DNA of 39,345 bases from a virus. Position numbers and translations under genes: made by a program. This document shows, piece by piece, positions 31,472 to 32,163 of this stretch (position 1 is its first letter; each line of letters begins with the position of its first letter). A model generated the notes under the pieces. That model had not been told where the DNA came from and did not search any database. It saw only the letters and a list, made by a program, of their open reading frames with translations. Location of the stretch: the UHGV virus genome UHGV-1828728, one strand, 5' to 3'.

Positions 31472-31558
31472 TTACCCATGCGCGACGATGCCGCCAAAAG
31501 TGATAGAGAACAGCCAGAAATAGATCGCGGCCATAATGATTTTGAATGCCGTGTTCAT
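31472..31558 (-). CDS. 28-aa hydrophobic peptide, translationally coupled to the downstream gene
   Basis: MNTAFKIIMAAIYFWLFSITFGGIVAHG; ATG with AGGAG SD at 8 nt; stop 9 nt before the next ATG; below the ORF-track length cut-off. Confidence 0.35.
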   Translation of the reverse strand: MNTAFKIIMAAIYFWLFSITFGGIVAHG

Positions 31559-31586
31559 ATTTTCAGCTCCTGTGATTGATTGGATA

Positions 31587-31616
31587 CATGCCGCGCCTTG
31601 CGGCATGTTTTTATTT
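31587..31616 (+). terminator. hairpin plus T-tract element in the leader of the peptide operon
   Basis: Stem CATGCCGC/GCGGCATG with 5-nt loop followed by TTTTTATTTT on the + strand; no + strand gene upstream, so its role is unclear. Confidence 0.35.
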
Positions 31617-31640
31617 TCACTTTTTCTGTTTTAATAATCA

Positions 31641-31657
31641 AGATTTATTAGAGCAAT
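31641..31657 (-). promoter_or_regulatory. C1 operator upstream of the peptide/242-aa operon
   Basis: Reverse complement ATTGCTCTAATAAATCT, 16/17 to consensus. Confidence 0.5.
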
Positions 31658-32163
31658 TATTGTTGATGGAGAAGCGCGTTTTCATACTCCCTGACCATTA
31701 ACGTAAGTACGCCGTGACTCCTGAAAACACGCGCCACGTCAATCTTATCTTCCAGCGCGAACGCAATTTTACTTAGACCAATTTTCTTCAGGAGATCAAT
31801 CTTTGCTGGACCGTCATTTCTGTCATCGGTGGCAGGACGCATAGATAGCAAAGGCTCAGCCCCATTTGTTACGTGCTTACGCAACCAGGCTCGTGTTTTA
31901 TCCCTGGCTATCTCACAGCGCCCGGTTACAAACCAGAGGGTGTAAATGCCGGACAACTGGCGCACCATATCAATAACTGGAGTGATGGGAGCATCAGTGT
32001 CACAGGCAAGGTTAAACTCGTTCCAGTGCTCTGTTAATGCACCTTTGCCAGGTGGTGGAAGTAAATGCAGCCTGTCTTCCGTTGCCTCTGATATCGTCCC
32101 ATCAATATCTACTATGACGATGTACGGACGTTCCTGGTGTGCGTGTTTATTGAAAATACTCAA
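31657..32163 (-). CDS. HAD-superfamily phosphatase-like protein
   Basis: 168 aa with IVIVDIDGTIS (HAD motif I DxDGT) near the N-terminus; TTG start with GAGGAGGG SD. Confidence 0.6.
   Translation of the reverse strand: MSIFNKHAHQERPYIVIVDIDGTISEATEDRLHLLPPPGKGALTEHWNEFNLACDTDAPITPVIDMVRQLSGIYTLWFVTGRCEIARDKTRAWLRKHVTNGAEPLLSMRPATDDRNDGPAKIDLLKKIGLSKIAFALEDKIDVARVFRSHGVLTLMVREYENALLHQQ

Follow-up and report, generated by a model that had tools for sequence, protein, structure and literature searches.

A 28-codon open reading frame (ORF) with the predicted product MNTAFKIIMAAIYFWLFSITFGGIVAHG lies on the minus strand of the virus genome UHGV-1828728, the whole 39,345-nucleotide (nt) stretch of which was analysed and is referred to here as the window. 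Based mainly on a comparison of divergent relatives, we consider it very likely that this ORF is a genuine gene that forms the first cistron of the C1-repressed Op88/pmgT early unit and encodes a predicted single-pass inner-membrane peptide. Our confidence in its mode of action is much lower than in the gene call. The window is a P1-like phage-plasmid, and the region around the peptide ORF shares 96-98% identity with phage P1, P7, SJ46, RCS47, and further Punavirus records. Every feature of the peptide locus is oriented on the minus strand, and three of these features are as follows.

31558..31472, minus strand: peptide ORF, 28 sense codons plus TAA (ATG at 31558-31556, TAA at 31474-31472)
31571-31567, minus strand: Shine-Dalgarno (SD) sequence AGGAG, 8 nt 5' of the peptide ATG
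31657..31641, minus strand: C1 operator (Op88/OpmgT), ATTGCTCTAATAAATCT, matching 16 of the 17 positions of the consensus ATTGCTCTAATAAATTT

The original prediction, made from the window sequence, had described a hydrophobic ORF of 28 amino acids (aa) that has an AGGAG SD, is preceded by a 16/17 operator, and ends 9 nt before the ATG of a 242-aa gene, and had named lysis, superinfection exclusion, and toxin-like modulation as candidate roles. All four elements were found in place. The single-mismatch operator equals the annotated Op88/OpmgT of P1, the 242-aa gene is pmgT with its ATG at 31462, and the 9-nt gap is GGGGGATGC at 31471-31463. The proposed reading of the ORF as a real gene for a hydrophobic peptide under a C1 operator is supported by the frame, the helix, the substitution pattern, and the operator in seven lineages.

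Conservation of the small ORF in seven lineages

Using Pap as a query in tblastn, we identified Cronobacter phage JK004, the Pap of which is 71% identical. Downstream of pap, JK004 carries the C1 operator ATTGCTCTAATAAATAT, a stem-loop of other sequence, CCAATCAATCACCGGAGCC, an ATG, and a 53-codon ORF that begins with MHLIFKLAITAFYAWMLTVVITSFKPDANMK. Searches with the JK004 peptide and with alignments added Salmonella phage-plasmids, in which the homologue has 46 aa and begins with MHTVFKLAMAAFYIWIFTIVFTGIAKATPVN, the IMG/VR contig L092, and the contigs of the database proteins P0023-P0026. A metagenome scan with the family alignment returned one JK004-like locus, and a scan of genome contigs with pap returned only two near-identical loci. 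The peptide ORF was followed in these seven lineages:

P1 type: the window and L001
L096: 48 aa
L090/L091 (Salmonella phage-plasmids): 46 aa
L089 (JK004): 53 aa
L092
L097
L098/L099

The homologues in the six non-P1 lineages, which comprise JK004, the Salmonella phage-plasmids, and metagenomic contigs, are 46-53 aa long. In seven of seven lineages, the elements follow each other in the order operator, -35/-10 hexamers, stem-loop, CAATCA...GGAGC, ATG, and small ORF. pap is absent in the Salmonella and L096 lineages, and the module there directly follows pmgS; thus, the small ORF is linked to the operator and promoter and not to pap. The gene after the small ORF also differs by lineage and is pmgT, the gene for Upf86.8, a gene for a winged helix-turn-helix (wHTH)-like protein, or a convergent hsdR. 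Absence of the ORF from relatives had been named beforehand as an observation that would speak against a gene; the ORF is kept in all seven lineages with the same frame and the same start.

Residues 1-24 align without gaps across the lineages, and M1, K6, A11, and W15 are invariant. At the DNA level, the ORFs of different lineages show 26-34 differences in 72 nt in pairwise comparisons (~50-60% identity), and these differences fall mainly at codon positions 3 and 1 (e.g., 10/1/17 and 9/4/15 at positions 1/2/3). In the ORF frame, the pairwise proportion of synonymous differences (pS) is 0.8-0.9 vs ~0.25 for nonsynonymous differences (pN), while the other two frames display no consistent pattern. 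Across all seven lineages, codon positions 1/2/3 require at least 25/9/34 changes (chi-square p = 0.0008), and no alternative frame is open across the lineages. The conservation of position 2, with positions 1 and 3 free to change, points to a hydrophobic coding segment under selection. We regard this comparison of divergent lineages as the decisive evidence that the ORF is a probable gene.

Residues 7-25 form a single predicted hydrophobic helix with a mean Kyte-Doolittle hydropathy of 2.1 in a 19-residue window, and the corresponding means of the family members are 1.8-2.3 over 19 residues. For the 53-aa homologue, AlphaFold2 predicted a helix at residues 2-23 with a predicted local distance difference test (pLDDT) score of 84-89, followed by a low-confidence tail. 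The charges flanking the helix, +1 N-terminally and 0 to +2 C-terminally, are ambiguous with respect to topology. When plotted on a helical wheel, A11, W15, S/T18, and G/T22 lie inside a 60-degree arc, which suggests that the conserved side of the helix is a packing face. We also considered a Sec signal peptide in the longer homologues, with cleavage after GIA or VKA, and rejected it: the hydrophobic stretch has 19-20 residues, the JK004-type peptide is without a small-x-small site, and the P1 type is without a mature part.

Searches of Pfam, NCBIfam, PHROGs, PADLOC, and PDB sequences with the 28-, 44-, 46-, 48-, and 53-aa forms gave no match at E < 0.01. Two word-index searches of 5.8 billion proteins found nothing beyond the peptide's own family, and all eight proteins recovered by an exhaustive profile search of 1.84 billion representatives belong to that family. 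As judged from these searches, the predicted peptides constitute a new family with a narrow distribution, of the familiar kind of small phage membrane peptides. Based on general knowledge together with the hydropathy and wheel calculations, they are like AcrZ, MgtS, KdpF, and PmrR in having <50 aa, essentially one transmembrane helix, and a conserved face of small residues. They differ from these proteins in that there is no sequence similarity and in that the P1 peptide is phage-encoded and repressor-gated; the likeness is, therefore, an analogy of kind and not one of membership.

The C1-controlled leader and the junction with pmgT

The peptide ORF is flanked by pap and pmgT behind the C1 operator, with no endolysin gene adjacent. 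The product of the 242-aa gene is 98% identical to P1 PmgT over 232 aa. The other features of the unit are as follows.

31657-32163, minus strand: pap, HAD/PNKP-type phosphatase, upstream neighbour of the peptide ORF
31628..31656, minus strand: predicted sigma-70 promoter P2pmgT, -35 TTGCTC at 31656..31651 inside the operator, -10 TAAAAC at 31633..31628
31613..31641, minus strand: predicted sigma-70 promoter P1pmgT, -35 TTGATT at 31641..31636, 17-nt spacer, -10 GAAAAT at 31618..31613
31586..31608, minus strand: 5'-proximal mRNA stem-loop, ACATGCCGC-AAGGC-GCGGCATGT
31572..31585, minus strand: linker ATCCAATCAATCAC between the stem-loop and the SD
31460..31473, minus strand: junction to pmgT, SD-like AAGGGGGA overlapping the peptide stop codon
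30734..31462, minus strand: pmgT, 242 aa, second cistron, matching phrog_874

The operator and the pap stop codon overlap by one base, the first of the operator and the last of the stop. Matches to the C1 consensus with two or fewer mismatches occur five times in the window vs 0.02 expected by chance. The P1 reference (NC_005856) lists an identical sequence at the corresponding place as [quoted passage not shown] and a C1 operator precedes the peptide ORF in all seven lineages. The four further matches, with one or two mismatches, lie at 757-773 (minus strand), 17209-17225 (minus strand), 17292-17308 (plus strand), and 37406-37422 (plus strand), and presumably represent other known P1 operators; those at 17209-17225 and 17292-17308 are on opposite strands ~70 bp apart. 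For variation within the P1 clade, we used a sample collected via pap that consisted of 80 IMG/VR loci, two genome loci, and several annotated records, and aligned its 59 unique sequences from pap to the start of pmgT. In this sample, 10 of the 17 positions of Op88 are variable, mostly as singletons (nucleotide diversity [pi] 0.046), and the operator is more variable than the downstream ORF and leader.

The positions of P1pmgT and P2pmgT were transferred to the window from the annotation of NC_005856, in which they are predicted promoters, and both overlap the operator. A scan for strict consensus promoters did not call the hexamers of either. The other lineages have TTGNTT, a 17-nt spacer, and AAGAAT, AATAAT, or CAGAAT at the equivalent place. 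Based on P1pmgT, the transcription start is expected at ~31607-31605, i.e., at the foot of the stem-loop.

A stem-loop is present in every lineage at the same position and distance from the -10 box, while the sequences differ:

JK004: GGCCGC - ACGCTATCA - GCGGCC
L092: AGCCGC - ACGCTTTCA - GCGGCT
Salmonella L090/L091: AGGCCAC - ATGCTTTCA - GTGGCCT
L096: AAGGCCAC - GCGCTTCCA - GTGGCCTT
L097: TGGCAGTCAC - GCACTACCA - GTGACTGCCA

In a MAFFT alignment of nine leaders, the P1-type stem is out of register; covariation was, therefore, counted on the six non-P1 leaders, and the P1-type stem was treated as a further independent instance outside this count. Six of the 10 base pairs are altered on both sides, and the inner six pairs are 100% paired. 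The covariation score was reached by 0 of 500 shuffles, and sliding the 3' partner by 1-3 columns lowered pairing from 83% to 18-43%. Within the P1 clade, indels in the hairpin fall in the loop and none in the stem. The -10 hexamer (GAAAAT, AAGAAT, AATAAT, or CAGAAT) ends 4-7 nt 5' of the stem, which would place the first transcribed base at the stem or immediately upstream of it. The stem-loop most likely serves as a 5'-terminal protection against RNase E-type decay.

CAATCA(ATCA) followed by GGAGC is kept in all seven lineages, and the GGAG of the peptide SD is invariant across all of them. In the P1 clade, the linker is nearly invariant (pi 0.007). It may enhance translation as an unstructured stretch or serve as a binding site. 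The CA-rich form CCAATCAATCA(C/T) occurs in the window (31572-31585, minus strand), in L089 (3063-3076), and in L090 (2477-2490).

At the 3' end of the ORF, the SD-like sequence of pmgT overlaps the peptide stop codon, and in the other lineages the peptide stop either overlaps the start of the next gene or adjoins it (ATGA, TGATG, or TAA plus 5 nt). From this layout, pmgT is probably translationally coupled to the peptide ORF.

These elements suggest the following sequence of events. In a lysogen, C1 on the operator at 31657..31641 would cover the -35 hexamers of the two predicted promoters, as the P1 annotation implies. Once repression is lifted upon infection or induction, transcription would start ~6-8 nt after the -10 hexamer, placing the 5' end of the mRNA at or near the stem-loop. 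Ribosomes would load on AGGAG via the unstructured CAATCAATCA linker and translate the peptide, as suggested by the SD, its spacing, and the conservation of frame and start. Termination inside the SD of the next gene may then allow translation of that gene by coupling. The peptide itself is predicted to consist of a short N-terminal segment with K6 and one helix (residues 7-25), with A11, W15, S/T18, and G/T22 on one face. It would act in the membrane by helix-helix packing, either in self-association or with a membrane protein of host or phage origin, and would have an early accessory function rather than a function in lysis.

Evidence against a gene and alternative explanations

Several observations weigh against the ORF being a gene. 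First, the ORF and its SD alone are within chance: using Markov-1 random sequences of the size and composition of the window as the null, the pattern AGGAG, 5-10 nt, ATG, and at least 28 open codons was found 6 times in the window vs 1.85 ± 1.3 times in the random sequences. What raises the peptide ORF above chance is its conservation in divergent relatives. Second, the codon signal is weak within the P1 clade. None of the 59 unique sequences has a stop or a frameshift in the ORF, with indels confined to the loop of the hairpin, the linker 5' of the SD, and the stretch beyond the stop; the 14 variable ORF sites, though, split 4/5/5 over the codon positions, with 9 nonsynonymous vs 5 synonymous sites. 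The ORF has a pi of 0.012 at positions 1 and 2 and of 0.029 at position 3, and this third-position diversity is three times lower than that of pap (0.097). The weak signal and the low third-position diversity suggest nucleotide-level constraint or a recent common origin in the P1 clade. Third, an IS1-truncated copy on many IncF plasmids retains codons 4-28 and the stop without the first three codons, the SD, and the promoter, and this start-less fossil is still open; the 84-nt piece is found alone in ~320 of 5,426 complete Escherichia coli genomes. Since the fossil has stayed open, intactness among near-identical copies proves little, and we did not use the intactness and codon data from the P1 clade as support for the gene.

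Fourth, the 28-aa form is shorter than its relatives, which carry an extra C-terminal tail of 20-28 residues that is mostly acidic, while the P1-type peptide terminates immediately behind the helix. A mosaic breakpoint at 31468 is common to 24 of 88 loci, and the P1-type stop lies 4 nt before it. P0009, P0013, P0014, and P0019 read through into unrelated tails, and one of them is fused to the end of a DUF551 protein. The junction corresponds to the left edge of "variable region 8" (pmgT-humD) of P1-like phage-plasmids (PMC9603915). The stop at a recombination junction together with the variants with other tails identifies the P1-type 28-aa form as a derived truncation. Because the P1 type lost a tail kept by all others, it could be a decaying remnant in this clade. 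Finally, CRISPR interference (CRISPRi) knock-down of pap, pmgT, pmgU, and pmgV caused no P1 plaque defect (PMC10695390), and the absence of a plaque phenotype for pmgT and pap argues that the unit is dispensable in the laboratory. The small ORF lies outside the CRISPRi targets, i.e., between the pap target on its 5' side and the pmgT target on its 3' side, and behind its own promoter. In the literature on P1, Op88, and P1 transcriptomes, we found no mention of the peptide ORF.

With these points in mind, we considered four other explanations. The one that fares best, although we consider it improbable, is that the ORF is a leader peptide only, in which the act of translation delivers ribosomes to the next start or opens the mRNA and the peptide is functionless. 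The overlapping or abutting stop in every lineage, the retention of the unit after the P1 type was cut to 28 aa at the recombination junction, and the weak coding signal inside the P1 clade all fit this idea. A coupling device, however, needs no particular amino-acid sequence, yet the helix is kept while synonymous sites are saturated, four residues are invariant, and second codon positions are conserved (pN 0.25 vs pS 0.85). Moreover, the peptide is kept even though the downstream gene differs (pmgT or genes for Upf86.8 or a wHTH-like protein, or a convergent hsdR).

It is also possible, and we judge it quite improbable, that there is no gene and that a chance open frame sits in a conserved 5' leader in which the DNA or RNA sequence is the conserved entity. 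Consistent with this, the ORF with its SD does not exceed chance expectation when one sequence is taken alone, conservation in the P1 clade is about equal at the three codon positions, the start-less IncF fossil is open, and we found no family model or distant protein homologue. Conservation of the nucleotide sequence as such is difficult to reconcile with the comparison between lineages, in which the ORF DNA is only ~50-60% identical while the frame, start, hydrophobic pattern, and four residues are kept, changes are concentrated at codon positions 3 and 1 and not at position 2, and no alternative frame is open.

A third idea, to which we assign a very low probability, is a type I toxin-antitoxin-like system, in which a membrane-damaging peptide would be blocked by a plus-strand antisense RNA ending at the hairpin and T-run at 31586-31617. 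In size and hydrophobicity, the peptide resembles toxins of the TisB (29 aa), Ibs (18-19 aa), and Hok (~50 aa) type, as known in general, and like them is a short hydrophobic peptide that is tightly off at rest. A plus-strand scan calls an intrinsic terminator at the P1-type hairpin and the adjoining TTTTTATTTT (31586-31608, with the T-run to 31617), the P1 clade shows almost no variation in the SD and codons 1-9, and Rfam gave a plus-strand match to GcvB at 31531-31614. This match, with 20.3 bits vs a gathering score of 42, is well below the threshold and is a terminator resemblance only. We found no plus-strand promoter in 31300-32300; the candidate -10 CATAAT (31532-31537) is without a -35 and is not conserved elsewhere. 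The antisense T-run is a feature of the P1 type and is absent from the other six lineages, and in the P1 type it arises as the complement of the A-rich -10/start region. Thus, unlike these toxins, the P1 peptide is without a conserved antisense RNA, and its repression is transcriptional, by C1.

Lastly, the peptide is unlikely to be a lysis gene: a role as a holin, antiholin, or spanin-like peptide, for which a single hydrophobic helix encoded by a phage might speak, is the least probable of the four and has almost no weight, because the ORF belongs to the early accessory unit pmgT-hot, with a sigma-70 promoter under C1 control ahead of it, and not to a late Lpa-dependent operon, has 28 aa without a charged C-terminal domain and is shorter than known holins, and has neighbours the knock-down of which causes no plaque defect. 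The P1 lysis genes lie away from the peptide locus.

Returning to the reading of the ORF as a gene for an early membrane peptide, we propose, as a speculation that we would ourselves call doubtful, that the peptide serves as an early membrane effector under immunity control, which all P1-like phage-plasmids keep where their hypervariable accessory region begins. It would appear within minutes of infection or induction, and its A11-W15-S/T18-G/T22 face would bind a protein of the host inner membrane. This protein could be a transporter, part of the division or secretion machinery, or a defence sensor bound to the membrane, and the effect could be to block superinfection, to blunt defence, or to re-tune the membrane. 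If true, it would be the first functional small protein described for P1.

Annotation, distribution, and significance

P1 is among the best-studied phages and a workhorse of genetics. Its Op88/OpmgT-pmgT unit (NC_005856/AF234172; annotation of Lobocka et al. 2004) has the same operator, position relative to the pap stop, predicted promoters, leader, and ORF as the window, including an identical 28-codon ORF at 84392-84478. In this reference, only the operator, promoters, and pmgT are annotated, no gene is called between operator and pmgT, and the peptide stretch is noted for its homology to DNA downstream of plasmid hsd loci. Relative to this reference, only the ORF is new, and the operator was already known as Op88/OpmgT.

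The description of the ORF as unannotated was accurate in part. There is no feature at the peptide ORF in the annotations of P1 (NC_005856), P7, and the closest plasmid, pSA186_4. In SJ46, by contrast, gp098 (YP_009293555.1) is annotated as a 44-aa "membrane protein" in the peptide frame, some RefSeq plasmids have a 44-aa hypothetical protein (WP_001312275.1 or WP_029399105.1) at the locus, and the 28-aa form is present in one GenBank entry (P0008). The three 44-aa records share locus and frame with the peptide ORF and, besides P0008, are the sole annotations of the gene; their start differs by 16 codons. The 44-aa calls begin at the ATG at 31606, 16 codons upstream, inside the stem-loop and without an SD. 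The other lineages have no in-frame upstream start, and their ORFs begin at the position homologous to 31558, which identifies the 28-aa start as the conserved one; judging from this comparison, the annotated 44-aa start is probably wrong. In the literature, we found no ribosome profiling or proteomics for P1.

The full module is present in 564 of 5,426 complete E. coli genomes, and the peptide is encoded on 873 plasmids. P1-like phage-plasmids occur in about a tenth of complete E. coli genomes and spread resistance genes. Mutant, CRISPRi, and transcriptome studies have, thus, never considered the product encoded first in this operon, one of the few early operons under C1 control, and the peptide gene offers a cheap and tractable target for small-protein work. 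The present analysis corrects the 44-aa start of some records, and the stem-loop and CAATCAATCA linker mark out the actual leader of the pmgT unit. This is an incremental gain, an annotation fix that leaves the understanding of P1 immunity and of phage small proteins unchanged.

We note three further features around the locus. The IS1 fossil, cut after codon 3, is found in L004 (3990-4085) and L005, from the IncF plasmids pMS6192A-NDM and pMRSN346595_67.9, where it lies downstream of a convergent type I hsdR; in plasmids with hsdR converging on this site, the hairpin and T-run could stop hsdR transcription. In the non-P1-type lineages, the next gene encodes a winged-helix-like protein of ~104 aa with weak matches to HTH_24/MarR_2 (L089, 3245-3559; L090, 2637-2918; L096, 3147-3464; L098, 3159-3473), and its start overlaps or abuts the peptide stop (ATGA or TGATG). 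Between pmgS and pap, the coding strand of the window (32188-32216, minus strand) contains a hairpin and T-run like an intrinsic terminator.

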